This document shows, one piece after another, positions 15,045-63,103 of a stretch of DNA of 64,000 nucleotides. The position numbers were made by a program, and so were the translations under genes. Within the stretch, counting starts at the first letter, position 1; the number at the start of each line of letters is the position of its first letter. The notes beneath the pieces were generated by a model. It was given only the letters and a program-made list of their open reading frames with translations, was not told where the DNA came from and ran no database searches. Source of the DNA: Escherichia phage A4. The stretch lies in sequence record ON286972, one strand, 5' to 3'.

Positions 15045-15045
15045 T

Positions 15046-15231
<186 letters not shown>

Positions 15232-15295: not shown

Positions 15296-15438
<143 letters not shown>

Positions 15439-15439
15439 A

Positions 15440-15570
<131 letters not shown>

Positions 15571-22071: not shown

Positions 22072-22100
22072 AAAAAGCCTCCATATGGAGGCTTTTTTTA
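22072..22100. terminator. bidirectional rho-independent terminator between convergent genes
   Basis: hairpin AAAGCCTCC-ATAT-GGAGGCTTT flanked by A-run and T-run. Confidence 0.65.
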
Positions 22101-23255
22101 TTGTTTGTCATAACCAATCACTACAATCTTAGCATCAAATGCTTCGACAGAAGTAATTGTAACATTCTCATCATCATCAAGCTGAATTTCACATTGAACT
22201 GCATCATTGTTAATATCATATACTTGAACAAAAACAAATTCTTTCAAGTGTCCAGTACTGGATATATTAATTTCATACATTTCACCATTGCGTGTCCATT
22301 CAGAAGAAGAGACATTTTGTACATATGGAGATGTTTGTAATGTACTACCCAATATACTTAGTTTTATAGGTGTATTATCATATATTGTTACTGTAATATC
22401 ACCAGTGGAGCTAACATTAATGCCAGCAGATACCAAATTATTATGATTATCATATACCTGAATAGCTAAGTTATTACCACGCCCATGTACATCACCAGGG
22501 ATTCTTGCACTATACACATCACCAGGCCCAGTACTGAATGTAGTTACTGATACAGTAGTGGTAAAGCCGTCATCATCACCAACATCTAATATATTAAAAT
22601 TAACGCTTTTTGTATTATAAAAATCAGACGTAAGAGTTATAGTTGCAGTTCCGGTTGACATAATTTCCGGTACTGTTATAATGAATTCATCATTGACTAT
22701 TGTACTCGTTGAATACTCGGACCCATCTGAAAATTTTACAGTAATTGTCATTCCTGTTGTGTTGATGGTTTGTCCAGCATTGAACAGTTTACCCGATATT
22801 TCAGTATCCCCAACATGAACCGGATTAACTAAAATATTATCTATATCACGATCAATAATTGAACAAGTTGGTGTGTACATATCAAAAGTAACATCGGAGT
22901 TTCCAAATATCGTTTTGTGTAATTGGAATTTAGTTACAAACCCTGTTGGATCTGTAGGTTTCAATTGATTAGTGTATCCACGAACAAAGAAAGTATTCTT
23001 TGCAATAACATCCAATAATTCATCATCGGATTTTTTATAGTTAAGTAAATTTCCTACCTTATCATAAGAAGTAATTTGTACGCGTCTATATATTTTGTTT
23101 GTTACAGGATCTATAATATCAAATAGTTTATAACTACGCTGTCTGTAAATTCTTATATTTTTTAATTTGGTTCCATCGATTAGTAAAGCACCATCCACGA
23201 TATAACCACATTCACCGAACTTGTATTCTCCGGCATCAGCTATGGTTCTAGACAT
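22098..23255 (-). CDS. beta-rich, Thr/Ser-rich protein (candidate virion/structural protein)
   Basis: 385-aa minus-strand ORF with GAGGGG SD, isolated among + strand genes; composition typical of fibre/Ig-like domains (inference). Confidence 0.6.
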   Translation of the reverse strand: MSRTIADAGEYKFGECGYIVDGALLIDGTKLKNIRIYRQRSYKLFDIIDPVTNKIYRRVQITSYDKVGNLLNYKKSDDELLDVIAKNTFFVRGYTNQLKPTDPTGFVTKFQLHKTIFGNSDVTFDMYTPTCSIIDRDIDNILVNPVHVGDTEISGKLFNAGQTINTTGMTITVKFSDGSEYSTSTIVNDEFIITVPEIMSTGTATITLTSDFYNTKSVNFNILDVGDDDGFTTTVSVTTFSTGPGDVYSARIPGDVHGRGNNLAIQVYDNHNNLVSAGINVSSTGDITVTIYDNTPIKLSILGSTLQTSPYVQNVSSSEWTRNGEMYEINISSTGHLKEFVFVQVYDINNDAVQCEIQLDDDENVTITSVEAFDAKIVVIGYDKQ

Positions 23256-28408: not shown

Positions 28409-29371
28409 GTGAAGAAACTAGACTTAAACGCAATTTCCGAAGAAGTACTGGATGAATGTTTTGCGAATGAAGAAGTCAATCCATTGGAAGCAATTGAACC
28501 ATCAGAAGTTATTGAAGATGATATTCCACATAAAGTTCGTAGTAAAAGTAACATTAGTCTCAAGCGTCCAGTAGGTGTGACTAATGAATCCATCATCGAA
28601 GAGATTCGTGCTGGAATTAATGTAAAAAAGAACACTGACCTATTACTTCGTTATAACTATGGTATGATCGTTGATGTTGCTTCAAAGTGTACATGTTATA
28701 TTCCGTTTGAAGATAAAATTGCATATGGTGTAGAAGGTTTTATGCGAGCACTTAAAACCTTTGATCTTAGTAAGAATGTCAAATTCATTACATATGCAAC
28801 AACGTCCGTTTATATGACTATGTATAATGAAAGTTCAGATGCAAATTACATGGTGTACTTACCACGTTATATGAGCGTTCATAACATCCAAGTACGTCGA
28901 TTTAATGAATCATATCAACGTGAACACGGTAAGCGACCTACACCAGAATTAATCTCTGAGAGTACTGGTATCGAGCTTCAGCACGTTAAGAACTGTTTGT
29001 TATACCAGAATGCATATACGACTCTTGATGCACAACTGGGTTCAGATTCAGACGGAACCCTTGGGGATATTCTGAGTTCATCTGCTCGTGATTATAACCT
29101 TAATGTTGATAGCATTTGTAATCCATTACGTTATGCAATCACAGAAATCATTGACGAATTGAGTACTAAAGAACGAGAAATTATCATGCGTGTTCATGGT
29201 CTTGGGGATTACAAAGCAGAAACCCTTCGTGAAATTTCTGATAATGGATATGTTGATGATAAAGGAAACATTGTTAAGTCCCGTTCATCTGTGCACCGAA
29301 AATATAGTGAAGCTATTCAAAAGCTTAAAAAAATAGTACTTGAAAAAGGGTACGAATACGAAGATTTCTAA
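28409..29371 (+). CDS. sigma-70 family RNA polymerase sigma factor
   Basis: region 2-like LLLRYNYGMIVDVA...GVEGFMRALKTFD...KFITYATTSVYM and region 4-like HTH TKEREIIMRVHGLG...TLREIS; GTG start after AGGAG SD. Confidence 0.75.
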   Translation: MKKLDLNAISEEVLDECFANEEVNPLEAIEPSEVIEDDIPHKVRSKSNISLKRPVGVTNESIIEEIRAGINVKKNTDLLLRYNYGMIVDVASKCTCYIPFEDKIAYGVEGFMRALKTFDLSKNVKFITYATTSVYMTMYNESSDANYMVYLPRYMSVHNIQVRRFNESYQREHGKRPTPELISESTGIELQHVKNCLLYQNAYTTLDAQLGSDSDGTLGDILSSSARDYNLNVDSICNPLRYAITEIIDELSTKEREIIMRVHGLGDYKAETLREISDNGYVDDKGNIVKSRSSVHRKYSEAIQKLKKIVLEKGYEYEDF

Positions 29372-39038: not shown

Positions 39039-39617
39039 ATGAACCGTAAAGGTAAGTTTAAAGTATCAAAGAAGAATAAAAGTGGAAGGTTCAATGATAT
39101 ATGCTTAGGTTTTATCAAAGCACACAATAAACTTTCTGCCCTGAGTAGAAAGATAGTATCTAACAAGATTGATATTAGATATATAAGTACTAACAATAGT
39201 ACAGGGAAAGATGCACATCCAACTGAAAATATTATTTCAGTATCCTTCGTATACGATGGTCTGGACATTACGATAGATGATTACAGACGATACGGTACTG
39301 GGTTTATACGTATCTATTGCAGAGATGCATCTGATAAGCCGGAACGTATTCGTATTATCGGTACATTGAGTGCTGGTATATTTGAGTGGGAGATTGTTCA
39401 ACTTAAAACTATCGATGAGTACACCACAAGTTCTAATATTATTGAGTTGAATTGCAATGTGAAAGACCTCCCAAACTTGAGCGAAGAAGAATATTTTCAA
39501 GAAAGCTTGCTAACGCCAAATTTGGATGATATAATTAAACAATATAAGACGATGGTGTACTTCTTCAAATGTATCAAACCTAAGACTTGTTTGATGAATA
39601 TTGTCCGTGATCTATAA
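39039..39617 (+). CDS. hypothetical protein, EE-x-Y-F-Q family (SEEEYFQES)
   Basis: ATG ORF just downstream of cassette. Confidence 0.55.
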   Translation: MNRKGKFKVSKKNKSGRFNDICLGFIKAHNKLSALSRKIVSNKIDIRYISTNNSTGKDAHPTENIISVSFVYDGLDITIDDYRRYGTGFIRIYCRDASDKPERIRIIGTLSAGIFEWEIVQLKTIDEYTTSSNIIELNCNVKDLPNLSEEEYFQESLLTPNLDDIIKQYKTMVYFFKCIKPKTCLMNIVRDL

Positions 39618-39628
39618 CAGGAAAAAAT

Positions 39629-40060
39629 ATGTGGGTTAACGTTAATAGTACTGAACTTAATGAAATTGATATCTTTGCATTTGTTAATCTGGAAACTGAT
39701 ACCTTTGTTCGTGGACGTTTGTTCATGAGTTCTGCCTGTGTTCGCAGTATTGCAGTTATGGATGAACTCGGTCAGGTAATTGAGTGCCTACCATTACCTG
39801 CATGGGCATATAGCAGTACTGAAGAAGATGTAATGCAAAAGATCTTTGAAGGGATCAATAAGCTACCAGGTGCAGATGTGAAGAATAAGATATTCAACAT
39901 TGAGAATAAGAACTACAGTGCAGATGTATTGCGTCCTTTAGTGGATTCAGTACTACAAGCTGCATTAGCTAAACCTAAGTGCATTATTTTAAAGTACATT
40001 CCAGAACTTTCCCTAACTAAAGAGGATATGAAAGGATTTATATTCTCATCGGAGTTGTGA
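39629..40060 (+). CDS. hypothetical protein
   Basis: ATG ORF. Confidence 0.55.
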   Translation: MWVNVNSTELNEIDIFAFVNLETDTFVRGRLFMSSACVRSIAVMDELGQVIECLPLPAWAYSSTEEDVMQKIFEGINKLPGADVKNKIFNIENKNYSADVLRPLVDSVLQAALAKPKCIILKYIPELSLTKEDMKGFIFSSEL

Positions 40061-40284
40061 TGAAAAGGTATAAAATTGAATACCTACTTAAAGTAAGAGA
40101 GAAAAGTATTAGTAGTGAGAAATACACCAGTGAGATATTCGTCAGAGATGAGTATTACATTGGTGAAAATGAAGTTGAAGTACTGTTACAATGCATAGAA
40201 AATGAATTTCAAGATATGACACGTTATATGTCATTTGAGATATCGTGTGCAAAAGTTACATTCTTGAACAATACTTCATATTAA
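40057..40284 (+). CDS. hypothetical protein
   Basis: ATGA overlap. Confidence 0.5.
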   Translation: MMKRYKIEYLLKVREKSISSEKYTSEIFVRDEYYIGENEVEVLLQCIENEFQDMTRYMSFEISCAKVTFLNNTSY

Positions 40285-40288
40285 AAAA

Positions 40289-40313
40289 GGGTTGACTTTT
40301 GTTGACCCTTTTT
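40289..40313 (+). terminator. terminator stem-loop of the cassette family (GGGTTGAC-TTTT-GTTGACCC + T-run)
   Basis: hairpin with wobble pairs followed by TTTTT. Confidence 0.55.
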
Positions 40314-40320
40314 GCTATTC

Positions 40321-40328
40321 TATAAATA
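40321..40328 (+). promoter_or_regulatory. TATAAATA box (exact T4-type late-promoter consensus)
   Basis: TATAAATA about 47 nt upstream of the ATG of gene 40375, no -35 element. Confidence 0.4.
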
Positions 40329-40374
40329 TAGACATAGAGAATATATAACATGAAATCTATGGAGAGAAATCAAA

Positions 40375-41913
40375 ATGCCAGGTAAATTCACTGACAAAAA
40401 CGGCGGCAATATGGCTGGACACTCTGATAAATGGAGTGATGAGAATCGTCGCAAAAATAGTTTCCAAGCGGGGCAAGGTTCCCGTGGCTCTCGCAACCAA
40501 GGAACGGGAGAAGCTGGGAAAGCAAACACAGTTGCATCACAGGGTCTTGATACTTCAAACATGTCCCAGCATGAAAAATTGAAGTACTTCAATAGTCTTG
40601 GTCTTTTAAATCCGCAGCAGAAGCAACAACTTGCTGCACTGGATAAAGCACAAGAACAACCTAAAGCAGCACCAGAAGCACCTGCACAGCCTAAAGCGGC
40701 TAATCCGGTAAAAGAACTAAGTGATAAACTTGGGAAGATCTTTGCTAACAAACCACAACTAATTCAAGGTATCGTAAAAGCACTTCAAGCGGTTCCTAAA
40801 GAACAACTCAAGGATAAAGCACAAGCTGTTCTTGATAGTATGAAAGGGAATACCAGTACTGAACCAACTGAAGTATTCAGTACTATCATGCGTGCACTTG
40901 AAGGTAAGCCACAGGCTGATGATGATATTGAGTTTGATGAACCTGCACAAGAAGTAGCAAATCTTGACTCAATCGTTTCTACATTTGGAAAAATTGGTGC
41001 AGAAGATAAGACTAATGCACAACAAGTTAAGAATGTACAAGCTAAGTTACAAAATCGTCTTGAAGGTAAAGATGAAAAGATTAAACTTGCAGCAGATGCG
41101 TTGAAGAAAGCATTAGAATCATATAAACCTGGTGAGAAATCTCGCTTCATTACTGCAATGAATGCAGTATTCGGTGCAATGAAGAAGTATGAAGCTGAAC
41201 ACGGTGAGAAAGTAACTCCTGATGGATATCTCCTTCGCAAAGATGAAGAAGGTGCTGTTGACCAGAAGGACGCTGAACCAGACTATGGTAATTTACCAGA
41301 TACAGTTGATATGGATGGTTACATTCATCGTCCTGATATGCAAGAATTTGGTTCAGACAAAGAAGGTTTTGAACATGCTATGGCTGTGTACAAAGCATTA
41401 GTCGATAATCCACAATATGCAAATAGTTTTGTAGATGAGTTTGATAGTGCATGGAACAACTACCAAGACAAAGGATATGATTTCCCAGCAGAAGCAGCAT
41501 TCTTTGAACTAGGTAAACTTCTTGCTAAAAATGGTATTAATGTTGGTTCTAATGGTGAAGCAAACACTTCAGAAATGGACGCTGAATTGGCTAAAGATCG
41601 TGAAATGACTGATAAGTCAATTCATGAACTACAAAAGCTAATGATGTGGATTGCTGAAATTGGCAAGAAAGCTGGTGCAGATCCTAAGAGCATTAACAGC
41701 AATATTAGTTGGATTAAACATAAGGTTGATAACAATGCCCGTAAATTACAAAAGGCATGGACCGACCTAGTGAATGGTGCAGACGATGTTGATATCGATT
41801 CACCAGAAGCATACGAGTACGCATTGAACACACTTGATAACTCTTTCAAGGATTACGAAAATGGTAACGTAACTGATTGGGAAAAGGATATCATGCATAA
41901 GTACGGTAAATGA
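40375..41913 (+). CDS. large low-complexity Lys/Glu/Ala-rich protein (candidate late/internal virion protein)
   Basis: 512-aa ORF with GGAGA SD; Gly/Gln-rich N-terminus, PKAAPEAPAQPKAA linker; function inferred only. Confidence 0.6.
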   Translation: MPGKFTDKNGGNMAGHSDKWSDENRRKNSFQAGQGSRGSRNQGTGEAGKANTVASQGLDTSNMSQHEKLKYFNSLGLLNPQQKQQLAALDKAQEQPKAAPEAPAQPKAANPVKELSDKLGKIFANKPQLIQGIVKALQAVPKEQLKDKAQAVLDSMKGNTSTEPTEVFSTIMRALEGKPQADDDIEFDEPAQEVANLDSIVSTFGKIGAEDKTNAQQVKNVQAKLQNRLEGKDEKIKLAADALKKALESYKPGEKSRFITAMNAVFGAMKKYEAEHGEKVTPDGYLLRKDEEGAVDQKDAEPDYGNLPDTVDMDGYIHRPDMQEFGSDKEGFEHAMAVYKALVDNPQYANSFVDEFDSAWNNYQDKGYDFPAEAAFFELGKLLAKNGINVGSNGEANTSEMDAELAKDREMTDKSIHELQKLMMWIAEIGKKAGADPKSINSNISWIKHKVDNNARKLQKAWTDLVNGADDVDIDSPEAYEYALNTLDNSFKDYENGNVTDWEKDIMHKYGK

Positions 41914-41923: not shown

Positions 41924-41955
41924 GGTTGACTTCGGTCAGCCTTTTTTGCTATAAT
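41924..41955 (+). terminator. terminator-promoter stem-loop cassette
   Basis: GGTTGAC-TTCG-GTCAGCC TTTTTTG CTATAAT. Confidence 0.65.
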
Positions 41956-44449: not shown

Positions 44450-44887
44450 ATGACACGCATTAACTTAGTACATGTTAAAGAACTTGCTGACCAACATCTG
44501 ATGGCTGAATATCGTGAACTTCCACGTGTGTTTGGTGCTGTACAAAAACATGTTCAAGCACGTAAGCGTGTACGTGATTTCAAAATTAACAGTACTTATC
44601 TGTTAGGTTCAGGTCATGTAACATTCTTCTACGACAAGTTACTATACTTACAGAAGCGTCATATTGATATTGTTAACGAATGTTTGCGTCGTGGTATGAA
44701 GATTCAAAACACTGAAGTAAACGACATTAGCGGCTTCCCTGCTGAGTTTTGTAATGACTACGTACCATCGGAGTCCGAGATTAAAACATCACGCGAGCGT
44801 TTGATTGAGAAGCTTCAGATGAAGCCTAAGTGGTATAAGTTTACTGATGTTGAGCTACCTATATATTATGTTGATATGATACAATGA
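44450..44887 (+). CDS. denV: pyrimidine-dimer DNA glycosylase (T4 endonuclease V homologue)
   Basis: N-terminus [31 protein letters not shown] closely matches T4 endonuclease V as I recall it; SD GAGAGG. Confidence 0.9.
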
Positions 44888-51216: not shown

Positions 51217-53241
51217 TTATTTGTGTTTTATGTGTAAAGTGTCTAATATTGTATTGAACAATGATTTAGCAGAAATCATGATTACTTGATCAAAATCTTT
51301 AGTATAAGAAATATTAGCAGTACTGGAAGAATCTTTCACCTCATCCGGTAATGCATCAAACTCTTCTTTTTCCATAATCTTTTCAAGTTCTTCACGAGAA
51401 ATGGCTTTTACGTTTTCAATAGTCCTTAGTTGTATATTATAATCTTTATAATACGAAACTAAGTTCGTTGCGTATGAACCATCTTTAGATGCTGTTCCAG
51501 TAAAATCATAACATCCTGTATCAGTACTAACCCAATCGATTTTCCCTGAACTACCACTATATACACCTTTGTTGAACTTAATGTTAACAACATCACCAAT
51601 AGTTTTCAATATACCACCTTTACATTCATTAAATGCGTTTAATTGATAACTTGTAGTCATATAGAATTTCGGTTCTAATGTAACAGTATCACCTACAGTT
51701 GCTTTCATATCAGAAACACTTAAGAACAATTCATTAAATCCTTTTGAATAAGTCTTGGTAATTGTTGTTCCATCCCTGTTAGTTACTGTGTATTCTAAGT
51801 CCAATTCACAAATACTATTCAATGATAAGTAAGGGATATCAAATTTATCAGTACTAGCATCATAAGGACATCTTGAGGATGGTAGTATACCAGTAGGGTT
51901 TGGTACGTATTGAACTTTTGTTAACTCATACCCGCTTGCATTCGCTGGTGTAACTGTAATAGACGGTGTAGATATTCCTTTCATTCCACAGAAGTATATG
52001 TTATCTGGAAAATCATTTATTACGAAGTCAGTGACAGGAATATCATAAGTATCTTTATCAGTCCAATTAAGAACAACATTAGAACTGGTTGGATCAACAA
52101 TATGTTCACTAGAACCACAGAAATATACTGATTTGGTATTAGTAATCATTAGTAATGTTTTGGATGATGAGTTCAATTCAAGAACATCTTTCACTTCAAG
52201 ACCAGATGGTAATGTCAATGGTAACTTCGTAAATGATGTTAAATCTTGTTCATCTTTAACACCACTAGTCCCCGCCGGAAACTTACCTGAACCATAGAAA
52301 ACACCTTTATTCGTCATGAAATACATGAACGGGGTTGATGTTCCTTTGTCAAATAGTTGAATGTCATCACATGTTAAACCATCAGGTAAATCCACTTTAG
52401 ATGGAGTTCTATAAACACCAGGCTTAATACCACCTTCACCATTACTTACATCACCTAGTACATATAAATCTTTACCTAGTTTCAAGAACATTGATTTATT
52501 TTTAGCACACAAGAATGTATCATATGATTTATCATCAATTGGTAGCTTGGTATATTCGGTGTATGTAGGCATTGAATCATCAATCCACGAACTATCACCA
52601 CTAATGTAAATGTGATTGTTTCTGTCAATATAATATGAATACACATCAGTACTGTTCATATATAAAGCATTTAGTGCATTTGTTTTCACTAAGTGATTGA
52701 ACTTAAGAACTTGTTTTCCATCGTACTTATGGGAGTTGACACCAATATCACCATTTAGGCTACTACCAATTGAATATATATGACCACGTGGTAATAGAAC
52801 TTGAACACCACTTTTGGTTAAATTATATTTGGAGTGCAAGAGATCGTTATATACAACTCTAACTTTCTTAAAGATATCAGTACATTCAATCCACGATTTA
52901 GATGGTGTACCATCCATTCCTATTATTGCCGGATCACCATAATAATAAGCTTTATTTTCATATGATATTTTAAAAGATGATTTACCATCTTTTGTATTAG
53001 CACTGAAGTACACATCTTTACTATCTTTAATTGGATAAGTACTATTCTCTACAAAAGTATTATATGAGATATCGTTGTTAGCACTATTAAGAACAAAAGA
53101 AGTAGATGTACTATTGGACTTATAGACTGCTACGGAAGATGTATCACTGAAATCAATTTTAGTGAACGTATCTTTGTATGTTTCGTTTAATAATCCTACA
53201 TAAAAAACATCAGTGCCATCCATCAGTAACGAATATAGCAT
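51217..53241 (-). CDS. large beta-propeller-like protein with RCC1-type motifs (array member 10, no MLPFVRM leader)
   Basis: 674-aa ORF; motifs such as KDLYVLGDVSNGEGG; start may be the in-frame ATG at 53223. Confidence 0.6.
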   Translation of the reverse strand: MLYSLLMDGTDVFYVGLLNETYKDTFTKIDFSDTSSVAVYKSNSTSTSFVLNSANNDISYNTFVENSTYPIKDSKDVYFSANTKDGKSSFKISYENKAYYYGDPAIIGMDGTPSKSWIECTDIFKKVRVVYNDLLHSKYNLTKSGVQVLLPRGHIYSIGSSLNGDIGVNSHKYDGKQVLKFNHLVKTNALNALYMNSTDVYSYYIDRNNHIYISGDSSWIDDSMPTYTEYTKLPIDDKSYDTFLCAKNKSMFLKLGKDLYVLGDVSNGEGGIKPGVYRTPSKVDLPDGLTCDDIQLFDKGTSTPFMYFMTNKGVFYGSGKFPAGTSGVKDEQDLTSFTKLPLTLPSGLEVKDVLELNSSSKTLLMITNTKSVYFCGSSEHIVDPTSSNVVLNWTDKDTYDIPVTDFVINDFPDNIYFCGMKGISTPSITVTPANASGYELTKVQYVPNPTGILPSSRCPYDASTDKFDIPYLSLNSICELDLEYTVTNRDGTTITKTYSKGFNELFLSVSDMKATVGDTVTLEPKFYMTTSYQLNAFNECKGGILKTIGDVVNIKFNKGVYSGSSGKIDWVSTDTGCYDFTGTASKDGSYATNLVSYYKDYNIQLRTIENVKAISREELEKIMEKEEFDALPDEVKDSSSTANISYTKDFDQVIMISAKSLFNTILDTLHIKHK

Positions 53242-54154
53242 TTCTATTATTACATAAAGAAGTAATATTTTTTACTACTTTATTTGAATTATAGTTTGGT
53301 AACTTCTTTAATCCACGAACAAAATTATCACAAATAATACCAGTACCATAGAAGTTATAATCTTTATCACAGTATATAAATGCTGTATCATATGGTGAAG
53401 TACTTAAATTCTTATAGAATGGGAATGGAGTGAATGTGAATTGTAGAACCTTACGCAATTCCCCTACTGTCTCTGTTGGGAATTGTCTGTTTTTATTATT
53501 ACCAATAAAAACAACTCTATCTGTTAGGAATGTGTACATAATTCCATATGGTTTTACGTACAAATCATTATATCCCAATGATAATTTAGTTGGTGATGTT
53601 AGTGGTCCTGAGTTTATTTTGGTTTGATTAATTGAAAACTCATTAGAATTATAACCAGCCCCATATGTATTACCATTAGTACTTAAATAATATACAGTAG
53701 CTTCCCCTGCTCCAAGAAAAGTCTTTACATCAGTTGCTAACGTTTTTTGGAAAGTTGGATAAAATTTATTATATGTTCCCGTTCCCATCATCAGTTCACC
53801 ATTGCGGTTATGACCACGAGCATATAGAATACCTTTGTCTGTATCTAAGAAGAACATACCATTATATGTTTTGTAAATCTTACCTTTTGTAATATCGAAA
53901 TTGGAAAAATCATCACTAATATCAATGAATATTGTCTCAAGATTATCTTCAAGGGAGTTTAGAGATTTACCACAATACCATACTGAGTTATCTTTTTTAA
54001 CAGCAACACAACCACACGGACTGGCATCAAAATATGTTACATCGGAAAGAACCAGAGATAAGTTCTTTGTACTGCAATAGTTATCCATTGCATATAAATC
54101 GGAATCTTTAAGTATATATACGGAATTCCCAACCGCTTTAATCGAATTTATCAT
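53210..54154 (-). CDS. RCC1-like beta-propeller protein (array member 9, no MLPFVRM leader)
   Basis: track ORF starts TTG at 54244; trimmed to ATG (MINSIK) after GAGGA SD; motif GILYARGHNRNGELMMG. Confidence 0.55.
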   Translation of the reverse strand: MINSIKAVGNSVYILKDSDLYAMDNYCSTKNLSLVLSDVTYFDASPCGCVAVKKDNSVWYCGKSLNSLEDNLETIFIDISDDFSNFDITKGKIYKTYNGMFFLDTDKGILYARGHNRNGELMMGTGTYNKFYPTFQKTLATDVKTFLGAGEATVYYLSTNGNTYGAGYNSNEFSINQTKINSGPLTSPTKLSLGYNDLYVKPYGIMYTFLTDRVVFIGNNKNRQFPTETVGELRKVLQFTFTPFPFYKNLSTSPYDTAFIYCDKDYNFYGTGIICDNFVRGLKKLPNYNSNKVVKNITSLCNNRNAIFVTDGWH

Positions 54155-54373
54155 GTTTATATCCTCATAAATTGATACCAATTCTAATGTATTTACCCAC
54201 TTAAAGTACAAAAAATGATCAATTAAATGGGGAATCTTTAACAAATGAATTCATGATGTACTTGATGAATTGCCCATACCAACGGATTCCTCAGTCCCAG
54301 CATACCACATGGTATTATCGAACTTTTTATCATTGTAGTATCATAACCACACCAAACATCATCAACATTAGTA

Positions 54374-55726
54374 TTACAACAATTGTATTTCTGTGAGTGT
54401 TTGATATGTTGTACCGTTGTACACACCTCTCCAATATACCCTACCTTCAGTACTAACCACTAATAATCCATATGTTGTAAACCCAAGAGTACCACCAACA
54501 TACATAGCATCTTTAATTCGAATACCAATGTCTTCATATGTAAATGAAGCGACTGCTCCCGCTTGCCACGAAGGACTAGCGTAGTAATCACTATAAACAC
54601 CATGTGCTTTATATATTGATGTTGTTCCTGGTTCAAAAATTACAGTTCCACAGTAGTTCATTCGTATTTTAGTACTGGATGAAGTCGGTACATTTATACC
54701 TATGCCATCTTTTATCCCTGTAGTTAGGACGTTAAAACCACCCGCCACACGGTTGACGTCATTCTCACCGATTAAAAACATACCAACGTTGTAGCCCATA
54801 TAATATACACTGCTACTGCCATTCCAGAAAGAAAAACCACCACCATTACCACAGCGATATAGTTGTGAATTTGAGCAGTACATCATACCTTCGTTTGTCG
54901 CATCAAATTCATCTGCTGTTCCTATTGTAGCTACAGTAGTCCACGTTTTAATCACTTGGTTTGTACTAGCTGGTGTTTGTATACCATATCGTATATTATA
55001 TCCCTTACCAACGATTGTACCATCTTCTAATTTAGCATAAAGTACAGGTCTATTACCAACAAAATACATATTATTGTGTGACATGTCTATTGTGCATCTT
55101 AATGAAACTACTTTTTGTGTCAATTGATTATCTTTAGTAAAAGAAGTAAAGTAGTAATCCGATGTTGAGTTGTTTATTAAACCTTGTATTGACAATCCCA
55201 TATACCAGATTTCACCATTGCTGTTTAATGCTGCCAAAATACAACTATATTTTGAAGTGTATGCTGGTGATGTTGTTGAAGTTGCTGGTCCTTTATCATA
55301 TCCACCACAGAATACCATCTCCACAACTTCACCTACGTTCGAAAAATAAGAAGATACATTGATAAAACCATTTGTTATAAAAGGTGCTGTATTCATACTT
55401 GAATGTGTGAATATCCCATTTGCATATACACCACAAAAATGATATGAACCATCATTATCTTGGACTATTATTCCATTTGATAGTAACCAAAAATTGTTTA
55501 CATTTTTTCTTACTAATTCAACTCCTGCACCATTGGTTGGTGTTATACCAAAAGAAACATATTTTGTTTGACCAATACCATATAAATTTCCATTAGTTGC
55601 TAGTATTGCACCAAACCAGTTCCCACCACCATTCCTATCATGACCCATACCAATGGAGTCAAATTTCTTCACAGTAGGGACTTCAACTTTATTCCCATAC
55701 TCTAGCATTCTAACAAAAGGTAACAT
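54374..55726 (-). CDS. RCC1-like beta-propeller protein with MLPFVRMLEYGN leader (array member 8)
   Basis: SD AGGAGG then ATG MLPFVRMLEYGNKVEVP; motif GNLYGIGQTKYVSFG. Confidence 0.7.
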   Translation of the reverse strand: MLPFVRMLEYGNKVEVPTVKKFDSIGMGHDRNGGGNWFGAILATNGNLYGIGQTKYVSFGITPTNGAGVELVRKNVNNFWLLSNGIIVQDNDGSYHFCGVYANGIFTHSSMNTAPFITNGFINVSSYFSNVGEVVEMVFCGGYDKGPATSTTSPAYTSKYSCILAALNSNGEIWYMGLSIQGLINNSTSDYYFTSFTKDNQLTQKVVSLRCTIDMSHNNMYFVGNRPVLYAKLEDGTIVGKGYNIRYGIQTPASTNQVIKTWTTVATIGTADEFDATNEGMMYCSNSQLYRCGNGGGFSFWNGSSSVYYMGYNVGMFLIGENDVNRVAGGFNVLTTGIKDGIGINVPTSSSTKIRMNYCGTVIFEPGTTSIYKAHGVYSDYYASPSWQAGAVASFTYEDIGIRIKDAMYVGGTLGFTTYGLLVVSTEGRVYWRGVYNGTTYQTLTEIQLL

Positions 55727-55801
55727 ATATCCTCCTTTATTCATTATATTATATTTAATCAAAAAAGAAAAGCCAGTACAGAGTACTGGCATTTAAAATA
55801 A
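55727..55801 (-). repeat. conserved intergenic cassette (terminator hairpin GCCAGTAC...GTACTGGC + T-run, AT-rich TATAAT-containing promoter-like segment, AGGAGG SD)
   Basis: minus-strand reading TTTAAATGCCAGTACTCTGTACTGGCTTTTCTTTTTTGATTAAATATAATATAATGAATAAAGGAGGATAT-ATG; recurs 6 times. Confidence 0.65.
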
Positions 55802-56977
55802 TCAAAATGTAGGAAGTTTGAATTCTCTCATAACAGATGAACTGCTTGCAGATACATTATCTGGTGATTTCCCTGCGTAGTATAATTTATTATCAATGAA
55901 CATATACAATGTTGCATCATTTCCTGCTACAAGTGATTCACTTTTCTTAAATTTAACACCACTAGGTAAAATTGCTTCAACAAATGAACCTGATTCTCTT
56001 GTAGTATTATTTGCCAATTGACCATTGTTATTATAACCAGTACTATAAATTTTACCTGAACTATAATATACGAGTCCACGAGTACTAGTGTTTTCTATTC
56101 GAATGAATTCACTATCATCTGGGACTGTAGTTGATAGAACTGGGTTTAACTTATAAGCAGATGATACATTATTATTACCCAATTGACCATAACCTTGAAA
56201 GCCTAGTGTATACATAGGACATGATTCTGGTGTGCCTTTTGTTATAATACCAATATAATTCACACTACAAAAAATGTCTATTGCTTCTGTAATAGGTGTA
56301 CCCTTATATTGAACCCAAGGGAATACATACGATTGTTGCTTACCATTTCCCAAAGTACCGGAAGTTGTTGTCCCAGTACGCCACATTGTATCATCAAGTT
56401 TAATAATCCAGTTAGCTGTCGTTATCGATGAACAGAATTTTTTAACATTATCCACTAAAAATGTAAATTGATTATAATATGATGCAGTGTTTATACCAAA
56501 CTTAGCACCAGTATTATCACCTAACAAATATAAACTATTATCTGTACCTAAAATCAAAGCATAATCATAACCCACGTATATATCTTTAATTCTTGAAATT
56601 CCAAATTGTGTAAAATAGCTTGTACATTCTGTGAATGTTGTTATATTATTGGTTGTATTATTACCTAGCCATTTATCTAAACCACTATAAAAGAATCTAT
56701 CATCATTTGTGCGTATTAGACAAAAAGCGTTCATTGTACTGCACCAAAAATCTTTAACATTGCTATATATTTTTGTCCATTCAGTTACTGCATTAGTATG
56801 ACCTAAACCAAAAATTCCACCATTCTGAAGACCAATAGCCCATATTGAACCATTTTTATCAAGCATCATTGTACATGTATGTGAATAACCACCCGATGGT
56901 GTAACTAATTTAACAAAATTGGGAATATATGGTAAAACTTTATTTCCATAATCCAACATTCTAACAAAAGGTAACAT
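55802..56977 (-). CDS. RCC1-like beta-propeller protein with MLPFVRMLDYGN leader (array member 7)
   Basis: SD AGGAGG + ATG; motifs GSIWAIGLQNGGIFGLG, GKIYSTGYNNNGQLANNT. Confidence 0.7.
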   Translation of the reverse strand: MLPFVRMLDYGNKVLPYIPNFVKLVTPSGGYSHTCTMMLDKNGSIWAIGLQNGGIFGLGHTNAVTEWTKIYSNVKDFWCSTMNAFCLIRTNDDRFFYSGLDKWLGNNTTNNITTFTECTSYFTQFGISRIKDIYVGYDYALILGTDNSLYLLGDNTGAKFGINTASYYNQFTFLVDNVKKFCSSITTANWIIKLDDTMWRTGTTTSGTLGNGKQQSYVFPWVQYKGTPITEAIDIFCSVNYIGIITKGTPESCPMYTLGFQGYGQLGNNNVSSAYKLNPVLSTTVPDDSEFIRIENTSTRGLVYYSSGKIYSTGYNNNGQLANNTTRESGSFVEAILPSGVKFKKSESLVAGNDATLYMFIDNKLYYAGKSPDNVSASSSSVMREFKLPTF

Positions 56978-57048
56978 AATTCCTCCTTTATTCATTATAC
57001 TATATTTAATCAAAAAAGAAATGCCAGCATCAAGTACTGGCATTATTG
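56978..57048 (-). repeat. conserved intergenic terminator/promoter/SD cassette
   Basis: hairpin ATGCCAG...CTGGCAT + T-run + ATATAGTATAATGAATAAAGGAGG. Confidence 0.6.
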
Positions 57049-58239
57049 TTATAGTTGTCTTGGTGTATCAAGTACATATCTATTTGTACTAGGACCACCA
57101 TCATCATACGTTCCGGTTGAATATATATTTTTCATATCAGCAGTTAGAAAAGTACGATACGAACCGCGATATATTTTTATTTTATCATACATAGAATATG
57201 ATATTTCTGCTGGCATTGGACATATAGTAAATCTACCAATAGTAACATTAGAACCAACACCCAACGAACCAGCATAACTACTCGCATTTAAACCAGTTGC
57301 ATATACACCAGTACTCGTAACTAGTATACTAGATTGTGTTGGGTATCCTGTATGAATTGAATACAAAGTTCCAGTTGGTAATGTCGTACTATTGCTCCCT
57401 AATACAGCAAGTGCCGAACTGGTTGTGGTATTGTTACCCCATGCACCATTACTCGCTAAACCACCAACTAGAAACTGACGTGCACCAGTACTTGGATTCT
57501 CAACCAAAGCACTGACTGCACCACTTGAGCATCCAGTGTATTGTAACGTTTTTGTGTATGTTGTACTTGGTTTATATAAAGTATATTCATTAAATGGTGT
57601 CCATGTGGTACTGGTACTTATACCTGACGTACCACCACCAATATATAAATTATTTTGTGTATCAAAAAACATTACACAGTTATTTGTTGACTGTATTTGT
57701 GCAATATCAACATTAGGCGTGACAGCTTTTACAAATGATCCATCTGTTATTTGTTGAGTACTACCAGTACCATCAGCGAATTGTCTAGCCCCACTCCAAC
57801 CAGTACTCCATATTGTATTATTATCCATTAATACCGTAAACCACGTAGTACCTCCATACATCTGTTTAATTGAAGTACTTGAACTTTGCGTGTACAAATT
57901 TTCAATATATTGGTTATAACTTAAAAACGTAGTAGTACTAGTTGGTAAACCAATATGATCACCATATCCACAATAAAAATAATTTGAGTCATTATCTTGT
58001 ACTAACAAAGTTCCTTGTGACACCCAGAAATCTTTAACATTTTCTCTAATTAAGGTCCATGACTTTACTGCATTACTATTTCCTATACCAAACTTCCCAA
58101 AACTATTATTTCCACGTGCGTATAGTTGACCATCCGTATAAAGAACGACAACATCTAAATCAGTTGGTGTTATTTTCTTAATTTGAATAGGGACTGGTGT
58201 TATATTCCCATAATCAAACATTCTAACAAAAGGTAACAT
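57049..58239 (-). CDS. RCC1-like beta-propeller protein with MLPFVRMFDYGN leader (array member 6)
   Basis: SD GGAGGG + ATG; motif GQLYARGNNSFGKFGIG. Confidence 0.7.
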   Translation of the reverse strand: MLPFVRMFDYGNITPVPIQIKKITPTDLDVVVLYTDGQLYARGNNSFGKFGIGNSNAVKSWTLIRENVKDFWVSQGTLLVQDNDSNYFYCGYGDHIGLPTSTTTFLSYNQYIENLYTQSSSTSIKQMYGGTTWFTVLMDNNTIWSTGWSGARQFADGTGSTQQITDGSFVKAVTPNVDIAQIQSTNNCVMFFDTQNNLYIGGGTSGISTSTTWTPFNEYTLYKPSTTYTKTLQYTGCSSGAVSALVENPSTGARQFLVGGLASNGAWGNNTTTSSALAVLGSNSTTLPTGTLYSIHTGYPTQSSILVTSTGVYATGLNASSYAGSLGVGSNVTIGRFTICPMPAEISYSMYDKIKIYRGSYRTFLTADMKNIYSTGTYDDGGPSTNRYVLDTPRQL

Positions 58240-58310
58240 ATTTCCCTCCTTTATTCATTATACTATATTTAATCAAAAAAGAAAAGCCAGTATCAAGTAC
58301 TGGCCTATAT
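58240..58310 (-). repeat. conserved intergenic terminator/promoter/SD cassette
   Basis: same cassette family (GCCAGTACTTGATACTGGC hairpin). Confidence 0.6.
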
Positions 58311-59480
58311 TTAAACTGGTGAATCTAATACAAATTCTAAACTACTAATGCCACCATATGTGACATTTGTCCCTGTGCTATATACAAAATTACCATCAGT
58401 TATATAAGTTCGGTTATACCCACCTGCCATCTGCGACTTACTATAATCAAACCCATCAGGAACGATTGCTTTGGTATATACTAATGCATTATTAGATGTA
58501 CCAATACCTAACATACCAGCTCCTGAAGATTTATTGTAGCCGCAACAATATATACCATCTGTTGTAGCAATAACTTGGTTATAATATGAAGTAATGTTAG
58601 CAATGCTTACTACATCACCGGGTGGCATTAGTGAAGCAGTTTGAACCTCAAATGCTCTATAATCACTGAGAGAACCATTTATCCCATCTGCTTGTGCACC
58701 AAATATTCTCGAACCGCCATTTGCGATGATGGTTTTACCAGTGGGATCAGTACCAATTGCCATTGCCATTGAAGTACTATTCTCCATATAGTACTTGATA
58801 TTAATTGTATTTCTTAAGCTGGTAGGAGCACCATAATATATAGTATATAACTTACCTCCTGAACTTGTAACTGCATTTACTCTTCCTGTATAAAATAGCC
58901 ATCCTTGGTTTGTAACATAACCGTGCATTAAATTACTTGCAAACAATTTAACAGGTAATTGATCTGCTGCGGTCGGAACAGTACTTTTGACGAATTTTCT
59001 AGCAACATTGTTAGTTGTTGTCCCATCACCCAACTGACCATCACCCCCTGCTCCAGTACTCCATATTGTTTGGTCTGTTAGTAATACACTTGTAGTCTGA
59101 TAACTAACTGCTATATCTAATATTGGTAATGTTAACGTATCGAATGTTGGCATAGCAGAAGTCCATATTGATACTGCTGCCCCTGGCATACCAACAGTTG
59201 TTGAACTTCCACTGTACCATATTTCATCATTGCTTTTCTTAATAACTATCGACGTGGCTCCCATCCAAAAATCTTGAACATCAGAAGTGCTAAAAGTCCA
59301 TGTAGTAACAATATTTTTGTGACCTAAACCCAAAAGACCATTTGTATTCTCACCACGCACATATAAATCACCACTGTTTGTTAAAACAGCAACATTATAG
59401 TTGTTAGCTAGTATTTTTTTAATATTTGGTTTAGCAGGTGCAATATTCCCATACTCTAACATTCTTACAAAAGGTAACAT
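58311..59480 (-). CDS. RCC1-like beta-propeller protein with MLPFVRMLEYGN leader (array member 5)
   Basis: track ORF extends upstream into cassette; trimmed to SD-proximal ATG; motif GDLYVRGENTNGLLGLG. Confidence 0.7.
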   Translation of the reverse strand: MLPFVRMLEYGNIAPAKPNIKKILANNYNVAVLTNSGDLYVRGENTNGLLGLGHKNIVTTWTFSTSDVQDFWMGATSIVIKKSNDEIWYSGSSTTVGMPGAAVSIWTSAMPTFDTLTLPILDIAVSYQTTSVLLTDQTIWSTGAGGDGQLGDGTTTNNVARKFVKSTVPTAADQLPVKLFASNLMHGYVTNQGWLFYTGRVNAVTSSGGKLYTIYYGAPTSLRNTINIKYYMENSTSMAMAIGTDPTGKTIIANGGSRIFGAQADGINGSLSDYRAFEVQTASLMPPGDVVSIANITSYYNQVIATTDGIYCCGYNKSSGAGMLGIGTSNNALVYTKAIVPDGFDYSKSQMAGGYNRTYITDGNFVYSTGTNVTYGGISSLEFVLDSPV

Positions 59481-59550
59481 AATTCCTCCTTTATTCATTA
59501 TATTATATTTAATCCAAATAAGAAAGCCAGTATCAAGTACTGGCATTGTG
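59481..59550 (-). repeat. conserved intergenic terminator/promoter/SD cassette
   Basis: same cassette family. Confidence 0.6.
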
Positions 59551-60660
59551 TTATTTCGGTAAATCAATTTTAGTAAAGACTGCAACATCCTCGCTTGCAC
59601 CGGGAATGGCGTAATACGTTCCAGTACTATATACATCTCCATTTTTGGTTAATATTGAAGTCAAACCATCACTAAAAAGAACATCCCTAATCTCACTAAC
59701 TTCAACGGGTAATTGTAAATTTGTAGCACTATATATAGCACCAGTTTGAGAATTGTTTAATCCCAAACCACGGTTCGCCCCAACACCCTTCTGATATGTA
59801 CTGGTAATTACCATTTGTGTAGCAGTATTTAATGCAGGTGAATTCGTCATAAACAACGGAGAACTATTAGGCAAAGTACTTACAGGAACTGCACGGAATG
59901 TAGTCGTACCTGAACTAAGAAAGTTTGGAGTTTGACCACATACGAAATATGATGTACCATTATAGTAATTAAATGCATTACCACCAATCGCTGCATCGAT
60001 TACACCAGAACTACGTAATCCCCAAGTGTTAATTTGTGTTTGGTCCCCTGTACCATGCTGCCCACTGCTATTCCATCCAGAACTATATAGCTTATTATCT
60101 AATGTAATATACATACTATCATTTGCATTAGTCATTACTTTACGCACGTTAGTAGCACATTGAGTTAATGTGTAAATCGATGATGAGCCAATACCTAAAG
60201 AACCACGATATCCATTATCTCCTGCACCATAGAGTACTGAACTAGTGCTAAGTACAAATATTAAACCATTTGTACATACAATATTAGCAATTTCACTCAC
60301 TGGTATAGCATTGGTAAACCAATTAGTCCTTTCAACTAATATAGTACTGTAAGAAGTAGTTGTAGAAGATGAGAACCAGTACGTTTCACCCGATGTCCAT
60401 ATCGTATTATCATTTTTAATAATAACAAGTGTACGACCACCCACGAAAAAATTAGAAACATCTGAACTTACTAATATCCATGAAGATACCGTGTTGTTAT
60501 TACCATTTCCAGATTCACCACCTTGATTTCTACCTATGTAATATAAATCATGTGAATCAGTCAATAAGAATTGACCCTGTGTAGAAGCACCAACTTTAAT
60601 TATATTTTTAGGACCGGGTACAATATTCCCGTACACTAACATTCTTCCAAAAGGTAACAT
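59551..60660 (-). CDS. RCC1-like beta-propeller protein with MLPFGRMLVYGN leader (array member 4)
   Basis: SD AGGAGG + ATG; motifs HDLYYIGRNQGGESGNG, NKLYSSGWNSSGQHGTG. Confidence 0.7.
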   Translation of the reverse strand: MLPFGRMLVYGNIVPGPKNIIKVGASTQGQFLLTDSHDLYYIGRNQGGESGNGNNNTVSSWILVSSDVSNFFVGGRTLVIIKNDNTIWTSGETYWFSSSTTTSYSTILVERTNWFTNAIPVSEIANIVCTNGLIFVLSTSSVLYGAGDNGYRGSLGIGSSSIYTLTQCATNVRKVMTNANDSMYITLDNKLYSSGWNSSGQHGTGDQTQINTWGLRSSGVIDAAIGGNAFNYYNGTSYFVCGQTPNFLSSGTTTFRAVPVSTLPNSSPLFMTNSPALNTATQMVITSTYQKGVGANRGLGLNNSQTGAIYSATNLQLPVEVSEIRDVLFSDGLTSILTKNGDVYSTGTYYAIPGASEDVAVFTKIDLPK

Positions 60661-60733
60661 AATTCCTCCTTTATTCATTATACTATATTTAATACAAAAA
60701 AGAAAAGCCAGTACTCTGTACTGGCATATTACA
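60661..60733 (-). repeat. conserved intergenic terminator/promoter/SD cassette
   Basis: same cassette family (GCCAGTACAGAGTACTGGC hairpin). Confidence 0.6.
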
Positions 60734-61876
60734 TTATTTCCACGGTAGAAGTGAATCAGGAACTCTGGTTGGTACTCTAACGGCTGGAACATTTCCAAGT
60801 TCAGGTAAACCACTCATATACAAATTGTTATTTTCATCAATTATCATTGAATAGAAATTATCAATTACGAAGCCTGAAATTCGTCTTCCTTCTAATGCAT
60901 CAAGAACCATTTCGGTGAAAGTTAGTATATTTTCGGATGTTTGATTAACACCACATGCACCATAGGTATTTCGACCACAAGTATATAACTTATTATTATT
61001 TTTAACAACACATCCATTCCCTTCGTTGTTGGATAAACCACCCACCAACTCTATTTCACCTTGGAATGATAAATTGGGAATTAATGTACTCATTGGTACT
61101 GCTGATACTGTACCTACACCAGCTTGACCATATGCATTTGGTGAAGCAACCTTCACTGAACCATCATTAAGAAATATATATGAAGTACGGTATGTATTTA
61201 CAGCTTGTATAGCATTGGTGATAGTATTGTCTTTTGTAAAACTTAATATATTTGATGTTTTTGTACTACCAGGAGCAACAGTATTTCCTGCATACCAATA
61301 GGAGCCATCATCAAGTACTAACCCAGTACTGAGCAAAGAACAGCCATAACTTTTAACATTTTCTATAGTGCTGTATCTGAACGATGTGACATTAGCTGTT
61401 GACGCGTTACCAAATACACCACCTTCGCCAGAACCACAGTAGAACCATTTTCCATTTTTTAAAAATACACGCAAATTCTGCCCAACAGCAATACCATCAA
61501 TATCATCAGCACTGACACCAAAATCAGTGAAGTACTGGGTTACATCAATCCAAACCCCATTTGTATTTGTTCCGATTTGTGGCATTACTATACTAGCACC
61601 TGTGAACCAAATAGTTCCATCATTCTTAATGGCAATGGAACCAAGAACACCACCCCAGTAACGTTCAATATTATTATTCACACGGGTCCATACGGTGGAT
61701 GATTGTAATGAACCATTACCACCTTGTCCAAATGAAGATGAACCATACCAGTACAAGTCACCATTAACATGCAAATAAAAACGAGTATTATAATTTGCTT
61801 GTAATCTATTTTTAAATAGAGGTTTTGGTTCCGGTGCAATATTCCCGTACTCTAACATTCTAACAAAAGGTAACAT
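60734..61876 (-). CDS. RCC1-like beta-propeller protein with MLPFVRMLEYGN leader (array member 3; near-duplicate of member 2)
   Basis: 380 aa; N-terminus MLPFVRMLEYGNIAPEPKP and C-terminus ...VPTRVPDSLLPWK shared with 61949..63091. Confidence 0.75.
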   Translation of the reverse strand: MLPFVRMLEYGNIAPEPKPLFKNRLQANYNTRFYLHVNGDLYWYGSSSFGQGGNGSLQSSTVWTRVNNNIERYWGGVLGSIAIKNDGTIWFTGASIVMPQIGTNTNGVWIDVTQYFTDFGVSADDIDGIAVGQNLRVFLKNGKWFYCGSGEGGVFGNASTANVTSFRYSTIENVKSYGCSLLSTGLVLDDGSYWYAGNTVAPGSTKTSNILSFTKDNTITNAIQAVNTYRTSYIFLNDGSVKVASPNAYGQAGVGTVSAVPMSTLIPNLSFQGEIELVGGLSNNEGNGCVVKNNNKLYTCGRNTYGACGVNQTSENILTFTEMVLDALEGRRISGFVIDNFYSMIIDENNNLYMSGLPELGNVPAVRVPTRVPDSLLPWK

Positions 61877-61948
61877 AATTTCCTCCTTTATTCATTATAC
61901 TATATTTAATACAAATAAGAAATGCCAGTACTCTGTACTGGCATTATA
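61877..61948 (-). repeat. conserved intergenic terminator/promoter/SD cassette
   Basis: same cassette family. Confidence 0.6.
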
Positions 61949-63091
61949 TTATTTCCACGGTAGAAGTGAATCAGGAACCCTTGTCGGTACATTTGTAGTA
62001 GACACCCCATCAAGATTTGGTACACCGCATGTATATAAATTATCAGCATCGTCAACTAACATCGTATAGTTATATCCCCTACAAAAACTACTAACATTAC
62101 GACCTTCTAATGCAGTAAGAATCATTTCAGTGAATGTTGTTATATTTGTCGAGGTTGAACCAACACCACATTGTCCATTTGAATTAAGACCACATAAAAA
62201 TAACTTATTATCATTTTTAATTATACAGGATGGTCCAGTAAGGTTTGTACCAAGCTCACCCACTAACTCTATTTCACCTTGGAATGCTAAATTTGGAATT
62301 AATGTACTCATAGGGGCTGGTGTTGTATTCCCAGTACCTGCTTGACCACGTTCGTTGGAAGATGCAACTTTAACTGTTCCATCACTAAGAAATATATAGG
62401 AAGTTTCAATTGTATTGACTGCTTTAATTGCAGTGCTGATAGAAGTTTCTTGTGTAAATCTTAGCACGTTTTGTGCTGACGTTCCCGATATAAACGTATT
62501 ACCTGCATACCAATATGTACCATCATTGAGTACTAATGCAGTACTTCGAATTGCACAACCAGCACTTCGAACATTTTCTATAGTACTGTACGTGAATTGT
62601 GAAACGCTTGCCGATGAACCATTTCCGAATACACCACCACTCCCAGCACCACAGAAGAACCACTTTCCATTTTTCAAAAATACACGCATACACGCAGATA
62701 TAACAATACTATCAATATCATCAGCACTGACACCGAAATCAGCAAAGTGCGATGTCACATCAACCCAAACACCGTTAGTGTTTGATGCAATTACTGGAAT
62801 AACAGAACTTGTACCAGTGTACCAAATAGTACCATCTTTCTTTATCGCTATTGTTCCTTGAACACCACCCCAATATCGTACAACATTTGTATTGACGAGA
62901 GTCCATGCGGTTGAAGAGTTCAATGAACCATTACCACCTTGACCATATGATGAAGAACCAAACCAATATAGATTACCATTGGTGTGTAAATAAAATTTGG
63001 CATCTGCCGAGCATTGTAACCTATTTTTTAATCGTGGTGCGGGTTCCGGTGCAATATTCCCGTACTCTAACATTCTAACAAAAGGTAACAT
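61949..63091 (-). CDS. RCC1-like beta-propeller protein with MLPFVRMLEYGN leader (array member 2)
   Basis: 380 aa; motifs GNLYWFGSSSYGQGGNG, NKLFLCGLNSNGQCGVG; only 12 bp (GGAGG SD) after upstream gene. Confidence 0.75.
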   Translation of the reverse strand: MLPFVRMLEYGNIAPEPAPRLKNRLQCSADAKFYLHTNGNLYWFGSSSYGQGGNGSLNSSTAWTLVNTNVVRYWGGVQGTIAIKKDGTIWYTGTSSVIPVIASNTNGVWVDVTSHFADFGVSADDIDSIVISACMRVFLKNGKWFFCGAGSGGVFGNGSSASVSQFTYSTIENVRSAGCAIRSTALVLNDGTYWYAGNTFISGTSAQNVLRFTQETSISTAIKAVNTIETSYIFLSDGTVKVASSNERGQAGTGNTTPAPMSTLIPNLAFQGEIELVGELGTNLTGPSCIIKNDNKLFLCGLNSNGQCGVGSTSTNITTFTEMILTALEGRNVSSFCRGYNYTMLVDDADNLYTCGVPNLDGVSTTNVPTRVPDSLLPWK

Positions 63092-63103
63092 AATTCCTCC
63101 ATA

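Follow-up and report, generated by a model that had tools for sequence, protein, structure and literature searches.

We analysed a stretch of 64,000 nucleotides (nt) of Escherichia phage A4 (sequence record ON286972), hereafter the window, and found that the gene of a 512-residue virion-associated protein (40375..41913, + strand) is preceded by the sole copy in the window of TATAAATA (40321..40328, + strand), an exact match, at the -10 position, to the T4 late-promoter consensus. Kept in front of the orthologous genes and placed before virion genes in the related phage phAPEC6, this word is predicted to be a gp55-type (T4-type) late promoter. The sequence features, their conservation, the avoidance of the word elsewhere and its association with virion genes in phAPEC6 are direct observations, and we consider a four-step model that joins them likely to be right. 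The box would belong to a cassette (40289-40328) in which a terminator hairpin is followed by a weakened sigma70 -10 hexamer (TATTCT), with TATAAATA starting at the last base of that hexamer. The hairpin would stop early transcripts coming from a promoter at 39003. Late in infection, host RNA polymerase carrying a phage gp55-family sigma factor would start at about A40334 and transcribe one gene only (40375-41913), stopping at the hairpin of the following cassette (41924). The product would then be built into virions, while the overlapping sigma70 promoter would probably add some early transcription, resulting in an early-plus-late pattern.

The phage and its predicted late-promoter box

Megablast and tblastn searches with the window matched jumbo myoviruses of the Asteriusvirus group alone (121Q, PBECO4, phAPEC6, JNE01, Turkey5 and others, with a DNA identity of about 80% at best), plus the more distant RaK2-like phages RaK2/K64-1, GAP32/CBB, Serratia phage BF and Yersinia phage fHe-Yen9-04. 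The gene order of the window is the same in 121Q and phAPEC6, including the neighbours of the 512-residue gene. Judged by these matches, the window is part of the early, host-takeover arm of a jumbo myovirus of about 350 kb, a relative of the Asteriusvirus members 121Q, PBECO4 and phAPEC6, with RaK2, GAP32 and CBB standing farther away. For the related phage Sharanji, a latent period of about 60 min is known. A T4-like phage proper was rejected, since the BLAST matches are restricted to Asteriusvirus/RaK2-like jumbo phages.

An earlier note on this DNA had placed an exact T4-type box directly past a hairpin at 40289..40313 and about 47 nt before the ATG of a 512-codon open reading frame (ORF). 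These coordinates proved correct: box and ATG are separated by 46 nt, or by 54 nt when counted from the first T of TATAAATA. The terminator scan and folding delimit an intrinsic-terminator hairpin at 40283..40313 (+ strand), made of an A-run, GGGTTGAC-TTTT-GTTGACCC (40289-40308) and five T (40309-40313). As RNA, it folds with an energy of -16.1 kcal/mol, and its sister hairpins in the window range from -12.4 to -19.5. The hairpin closes the upstream early operon, 39039-40284. From there, the order is TTTTT, GC, TATTCT (40316-40321), TATAAATA, tagac-ATAG, the 5' leader, GGAGAG and the ATG at 40375. The ATAG (40334..40337, + strand) stands 5 nt past the box, and we predict that late transcription begins at its first base, A40334; GGAGAG (40361..40366, + strand), 8 nt before the ATG and kept in Asteriusvirus orthologs, is the ribosome-binding site. 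We did not find any -35 element in register with the box: the TTGAC motifs of the hairpin are 23 and 13 nt away from it and are in register with TATTCT only.

Avoidance and placement of the late-promoter word

On both strands of the window, TATAAATA occurs once, versus 11.3 +/- 3.5 times in dinucleotide shuffles; by our own estimate, the Poisson tail for one copy or fewer at a mean of 11.3 is about 1e-4. The shorter forms are likewise scarce, with 8 copies of ATAAATA versus 40 expected and 37 of TAAATA versus 120. The sigma70 -10 word TATAAT is instead not depleted (151 versus 124 expected), and therefore we believe that the late-box word is selected against. Such a pattern would be expected for a strong signal, which must not fire at random. 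TATAAATA thus departs from chance as an avoided and not as an enriched word, and its sole copy in the window precedes a virion gene.

We then relied on the complete genome of phAPEC6 (352,598 bp), whose virion has been shown to contain 62 proteins identified by electrospray ionization tandem mass spectrometry (PMC7247149), for a count of the box relative to gene starts, a check that the earlier note had proposed and that came out in favour of a late promoter. TATAAATA is found at 15 sites versus about 68 expected. At seven of these (versus 0.05 expected), the word stands 42-55 nt ahead of a virion gene confirmed by mass spectrometry (MS), namely gp035c (the ortholog of the 512-residue protein gene), gp037c, gp158c, the major capsid gene gp225c, the scaffold gene gp226c, gp238 and gp323c. 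Four further sites precede gp232, gp234 (endonuclease VII), gp242 and gp214c, in or near the structural module; of the rest, one is 195 nt before the virion gene gp347 and three are stray. An A occupies the predicted start offset in 7 of the 11 gene-proximal sites. The relaxed core ATAAATA occurs 54 times versus 235 expected, and 19 of its sites are 34-69 nt upstream of MS-confirmed virion genes, versus 0.17 on average and never more than 3 in 20,000 trials of random site placement. Taking the window and phAPEC6 together, late-box words are depleted 4- to 10-fold. The box in the window falls in the same distance class as the phAPEC6 virion-gene boxes. Several late boxes of phAPEC6 (for example those of gp158c, gp245 and gp323c) directly follow terminator hairpins and have no -35.

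Two of the eight ATAAATA sites of the window, both in the form NATAAATA, also precede candidate late genes. One is 42 nt before the ortholog of the virion protein gp077 (22098-23255, - strand; PHROG 10468), and the other 37 nt before an ORF matching the PHROG "tail assembly chaperone" and Pfam DUF1353 (10648-10998, + strand).

Conservation of the box and its predicted start site

We compared the DNA in front of 15 orthologous genes, drawn from GenBank phages as well as metagenomic contigs; 11 of these loci are of Asteriusvirus type. Every one of the 11 has TATAAATA at 44-53 nt from the ATG despite differing flanks, and the box takes the same position in 10 of the 11 loci aligned. It is followed by five variable bases and then by ATAG, invariant in the 11 aligned loci (CATAG in 9); this conserved ATAG is probably the initiation site. 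At one locus, P0036, the box is present without hairpin or -35. Outside the Asteriusvirus type, the RaK2 ortholog has AATAAATA at -39 and that of Salmonella phage 7t3 has CATAAATA at -37, both nearer to the ATG.

A sigma factor suited to such a promoter is encoded in the clade. The phAPEC6 product gp237c, annotated as late sigma factor, matches PHROG 234 "late sigma transcription factor" (E 8e-18), and its gene adjoins gp46/47-like genes. CBB has been reported to encode a gp55-like sigma, and the ATAAATA motif to precede structural genes in both CBB and GAP32 (PMC5259590). The late-promoter reading is therefore already known for the wider group; NATAAATA/ATAAATA late-promoter variants have been reported for cyanomyoviruses as well as for the RaK2-like GAP32 and CBB. 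The PA5oct transcriptome paper gives no late-promoter motif, and the RaK2 paper discusses neither promoters nor ORF275.

The window itself encodes an RpoD-family sigma with regions 2, 3 and 4 (28409-29371, + strand; 74% identical to phAPEC6 gp066c), which might be proposed to read the box in place of a gp55-type sigma. We find this very improbable. RpoD-type sigmas with a region 4 normally need a -35, and most phAPEC6 boxes have none in register. Moreover, the exact T4 consensus fits the gp55 family, and the CBB paper ties other motifs to the early and middle classes and ATAAATA to structural genes, together with a gp55-like sigma (PMC5259590). Taking relatives and literature together, we consider the reading of TATAAATA as a gp55-type late promoter in this lineage to be well supported.

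Overlap with a sigma70-type promoter

The promoter scan further revealed a -35-like hexamer, TTGACT (40292..40297, + strand), located in the 5' arm of the hairpin and present in all canonical cassettes of the window, and an extended -10-like element, TGcTATTCT (40313..40321, + strand), which holds a degenerate sigma70 -10 (TATnnT). The two are arranged as TTGACT-18-TGcTATTCT, and the last T of the -10 is the first T of TATAAATA, a one-base overlap. In the orthologs, TATACT, TATGCT or TATTAT is found 17-18 nt from TTGACT, again with its last T common to TATAAATA, and the sigma70 key positions T1, A2 and T6 are kept. Early transcription of the gene from an overlapping sigma70-type promoter is plausible on these grounds, and its expression may span both the early and the late stage. 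As for the earlier note, which had seen no -35, its statement holds in register with the box; TTGACT in the stem does, however, pair with TGcTATTCT over 18 nt.

The gene might alternatively be strictly late, the sigma70 half being a decayed relic and the hairpin insulating a purely late single-gene unit within the early arm. Consistent with this, the cassette is the sole one of nine with a -10 two positions off TATAAT, its 18-nt spacer is suboptimal, and the phAPEC6 late boxes of gp158c, gp245 and gp323c, among others, likewise follow a terminator hairpin directly and lack a -35. Yet the positions most important for sigma70 (T1, A2 and T6) are kept, in this phage along with the TG, and in the 121Q-type phages the arrangement, TTGACT-17-TATACT, is near-consensus. 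We therefore regard a strictly late gene as possible but rather unlikely.

A number of points weigh against the four-step model or parts of it. The conserved sigma70-type promoter that overlaps the box makes "late only" doubtful. In EJP2, the -10 (TATAAA, at a spacing of 17 nt from TTGACT) coincides with the box, and thus part of the conservation of the box could serve sigma70. The orthologs of GAP32 and Serratia phage BF have TTGACA-18-TATAAT and merely CTAAATA. The gp55-like gene is not in the 64 kb of the window, that part of the genome lying outside it. Furthermore, CBB has no recognisable homologs of gp33 or gp45 (PMC5259590), and the activation mechanism may consequently differ from that of T4; a gp44-like clamp loader is encoded by phAPEC6. 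The detection of a protein by MS in purified virions indicates association with them and not a structural role. Finally, our literature search on Asteriusvirus transcriptomics gave nothing relevant, and we infer promoter use, start site and timing, like the place of the protein in the virion, from sequence and relatives.

Some of these points could suggest that the gene is transcribed by sigma70 only, from an ordinary early cassette, with TATAAATA as an A+T-rich by-product of the -10/discriminator that no late sigma uses. TTGACT-18-TGcTATTCT with its TG extension, the T-A-T-n-n-T kept in five different ortholog versions, the early-type region around the gene and the near-consensus sigma70 promoters of the GAP32 and BF orthologs would all agree with it. 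What such a reading does not explain is that the 8-mer is preserved exactly whereas the -10 varies (TATTCT, TATACT, TATGCT, TATTAT), that the word is avoided five- to ten-fold elsewhere, and that the same word stands at the same distance before capsid, scaffold and other virion genes. The P0036 locus, where the box occurs with neither hairpin nor -35, also argues against it, and we give this explanation hardly any credence.

Considering all the above, the cassette with a late box and an additional sigma70-type promoter remains our preferred model. The earlier note had suggested a late gene among early-type genes. The surroundings are as it said, with small same-strand ORFs that have consensus sigma70 promoters. 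The late character is supported by the conservation of a T4-type box, the avoidance of the word, the spacing to virion genes and the gp55-family sigma of relatives, while exclusively late expression is brought into question by the sigma70 overlap.

The 512-residue virion-associated protein

The gene product, of 56.6 kDa with an isoelectric point (pI) of 5.1, is the ortholog of phAPEC6 gp035c and 121Q gp201, as established from its ORF, PHROG match and homologs. It matches PHROG 20398, "virion structural protein", over the full length of the profile (E 1.8e-201). In phAPEC6 virions, gp035c was detected with 8 unique peptides and 28.8% coverage (PMC7247149), and CBB_38 was independently detected by MS in virions with 9 peptides and 56.6% coverage. 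The reading of the 512-residue product as a virion protein is well supported by these relatives and the literature.

The earlier note had pictured a low-complexity protein rich in Lys, Glu, Ala and Gln, and neither description held. The protein is instead rich in K (10.9%), A (10.9%), D (8.8%), E (7.8%) and G (7.4%), has no Cys and is mostly an ordinary all-alpha protein: low entropy is confined to about residues 74-120 and 222-256, with 4.03 bits for the whole protein. The AlphaFold model (pLDDT 69.6, pTM 0.29) is all-alpha, with 21 helices, disordered linkers and a disordered, basic stretch of the first 60 residues. We did not find any Pfam domain, nor any match in a sequence search of the PDB. 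Foldseek gave no match below E 0.3 in the PDB and, below E 1e-3 in BFVD, RaK2-like family members only. Since neither fold nor sequence matches anything outside the family, the fold gives no indication of function.

Within the family, residues 1-176 are conserved in every RaK2-like genus, with the motifs GSRGSRNQGTG and NPVKELSD...LIQGIV...EVFST, while the C-terminal all-alpha helical modules are shuffled between lineages; the GAP32, CBB and BF orthologs consist of the N-terminal domain of about 170 residues alone. In a profile search of 1.84 billion proteins, we obtained 37 clusters only, made of phage relatives and a few bacterial coiled-coil repeat proteins that share a short NPxxE(L/I)SDxL motif with the family. 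We judged these bacterial proteins to be a motif-level match and rejected them as uninformative about function. Three long coiled-coil repeat proteins of bacterial metagenomic origin (P0086, P0088 and P0093) contain 5-7 copies of a unit, ENPFAEISDQLTRLYAQKD..., matching the most conserved motif of the family, NPVKELSDKLGKIFANKP, which may reflect homology or convergence.

The earlier note had also suggested an internal or scaffold-like virion protein. Its presence in virions is supported by the orthologs gp035c and CBB_38, although nothing shows that it is internal or a scaffold, and the proposed kinship with T4 internal proteins or scaffold found no basis in sequence or fold, the protein being large and acidic. 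Processing by a prohead protease was considered and rejected: the protein has ten (L/I/V/A)xE sites, but the AxE count is about what its composition predicts. A shared N-terminal targeting peptide was not apparent either, since among the 62 phAPEC6 virion N-termini compared only the RCC1-repeat paralogs have one in common (MLPFARMVKYGN), and the 512-residue protein does not. By Foldseek against BFVD, with a model of moderate quality, we saw no similarity of fold to the inner-body proteins of phiKZ.

A second member of the family, phAPEC6 gp037c (127 residues, 5 MS peptides), has its own TATAAATA at -44 and is a paralog of residues 55-156 (E 6e-11); this paralog is absent from the window. In 121Q and phAPEC6, a DNA-embedded inner body has been seen by bubblegram imaging. 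One may speculate that the gp035c/gp037c family is a component of this body or is ejected with the DNA, the overlapping sigma70 and gp55-type promoters allowing early-plus-late synthesis. We hold this to be improbable as matters stand, and mention it because the 512-residue protein would be one of few candidates outside the structural module for inner-body or ejected proteins.

Cassettes and other features of the window

Hairpin and promoter scans located nine copies of the cassette, all on the + strand, at 29379, 37276, 37633, 38999, 40289, 41924, 44390, 45117 and 47110. The canonical form consists of an A-run, GGGTTGAC-TTCG-GTCAGCCC, a T-run and GCTATAAT; it is a terminator that carries the -35 of a sigma70 promoter in its stem (TTGACT-18-TATAAT, with TATAAT past the T-run). 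TATAAT is present in 6 of the 8 copies other than that at 40289, whose TATTCT has 4 of 6 matches and is not near-consensus. The copy at 29379 has no -10 and hence would act as a terminator only. The next canonical cassette downstream of the 512-residue gene (41924..41955, + strand; GGTTGAC-TTCG-GTCAGCC and six T) is, from scans and folding, the predicted terminator of the transcript of that gene, and its TTGACT-18-TATAAT is the predicted restart of early transcription for 41984 onwards.

Immediately upstream of the 40289 cassette is an ORFan of 75 residues (40057-40284, + strand) with no PHROG or Pfam match, placed between the same flanking genes as phAPEC6 gp037c/gp036c. In phAPEC6 and 121Q, its place is taken by the 127-residue virion protein gp037c and an ORF of 37 residues. 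From this comparison, the ORFan looks like a cassette-bounded replacement.

We also noted an endonuclease V gene of denV type (44450-44887, + strand), carried by this phage although it is no T4-like phage proper. Its product is 95% identical to phAPEC6 gp022c, with 40-75% identity for neighbouring genes, which may point to a recent exchange or to strong constraint.

Six tRNA genes (Ser-tga, Gly, Ser-gct, Met, Asn and Thr) are clustered at 12491-15560 (+ strand). Two of the eight ATAAATA sites of the window precede tRNA genes, at 12359 (132 nt before tRNA-Ser) and at 15409 (78 nt before tRNA-Thr), which hints that late promoters may drive tRNA expression.

At 1119-3017 (+ strand), an ORF of 632 residues encodes a C-5 cytosine DNA methylase with an in-frame intein (Hint and LAGLIDADG, about residues 77-423); its phAPEC6 ortholog, gp123c, has 286 residues and is free of the intein. 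Finally, 51217-64000 (- strand) contains at least eight RCC1-repeat paralogs, orthologs of the "DNA condensation" virion proteins of phAPEC6, where these paralogs have the common N-terminus MLPFARMVKYGN. Several of these genes in the window are preceded by a second type of cassette, composed of a hairpin GCCAGTAC-nnnn-GTACTGGC, a T-run and then TAAATAtagTATAATgaataaaggagg.

Significance and comparison with known systems

Our analysis provides support, drawn from sequence only, for the use of the T4 late-promoter word by Asteriusvirus-type jumbo coliphages. Strong counter-selection of the word elsewhere makes it a marker for late or virion genes scattered in largely unannotated early arms, and in the window it flags three of them. 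A modest new detail is that, within a PeSL-like cassette, a sigma70 -10 and a late box share one base, and that this overlap is conserved. Combined with the terminator, the overlap may represent a compact and testable design by which one gene is switched between early and late forms of the polymerase.

The RaK2-like family to which the 512-residue protein belongs (PHROG 20398/16530) includes gp035c, 121Q gp201, RaK2 gp260 (ORF275), GAP32_032 and CBB_38. The N-terminal domain is common to all genera, and the Asteriusvirus members are full-length orthologs with 70-77% identity.

Regarding T4, the internal-protein genes of that phage (IPI, IPII and IPIII) are expressed both early and late. The gene described here resembles them in its location away from the main structural module, beside a denV-type gene and further early genes, in having a late box and possibly early expression too, and in that its orthologs are carried in virions. 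It differs in having no sequence, PHROG or Pfam relation to them and no CTS-like N-terminus (MPGKFTDKNGG...); moreover, the protein is acidic (pI 5.1) and of 56.6 kDa, whereas IPI-III are small and basic.

The cassettes resemble the PeSLs of RB49/phi1, PST and nt-1 (Arbiol 2010, PMC2839356; Comeau 2014, PMC4122927), which are likewise repeated intergenic units that combine a strong sigma70 promoter with a terminator stem-loop between -35 and -10. In both cases, they flank small ORFans in a plastic early region, and the content between cassettes differs among relatives. The comparison, made by published architecture only, also brings out differences: the cassette here has another sequence (GGGTTGAC-TTCG-GTCAGCCC), its -35 is part of the stem, and it belongs to another phage lineage. 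In addition, the 40289 copy carries a late box, whereas the published descriptions comprise early and middle versions and no late one (PMC2839356, PMC4122927).

Compared with T4-type late promoters, the box described here occurs in a virus of about 350 kb that is only distantly related to T4 and in whose relative CBB homologs of gp33 and gp45 are not recognised; this predicted promoter is fused to a sigma70-type promoter and a terminator cassette. On the other hand, its 8-mer is identical to that of T4, occupies the -10 position in the absence of an in-register -35, precedes virion genes by a few tens of nt and is avoided elsewhere, and the clade encodes a gp55-family sigma.

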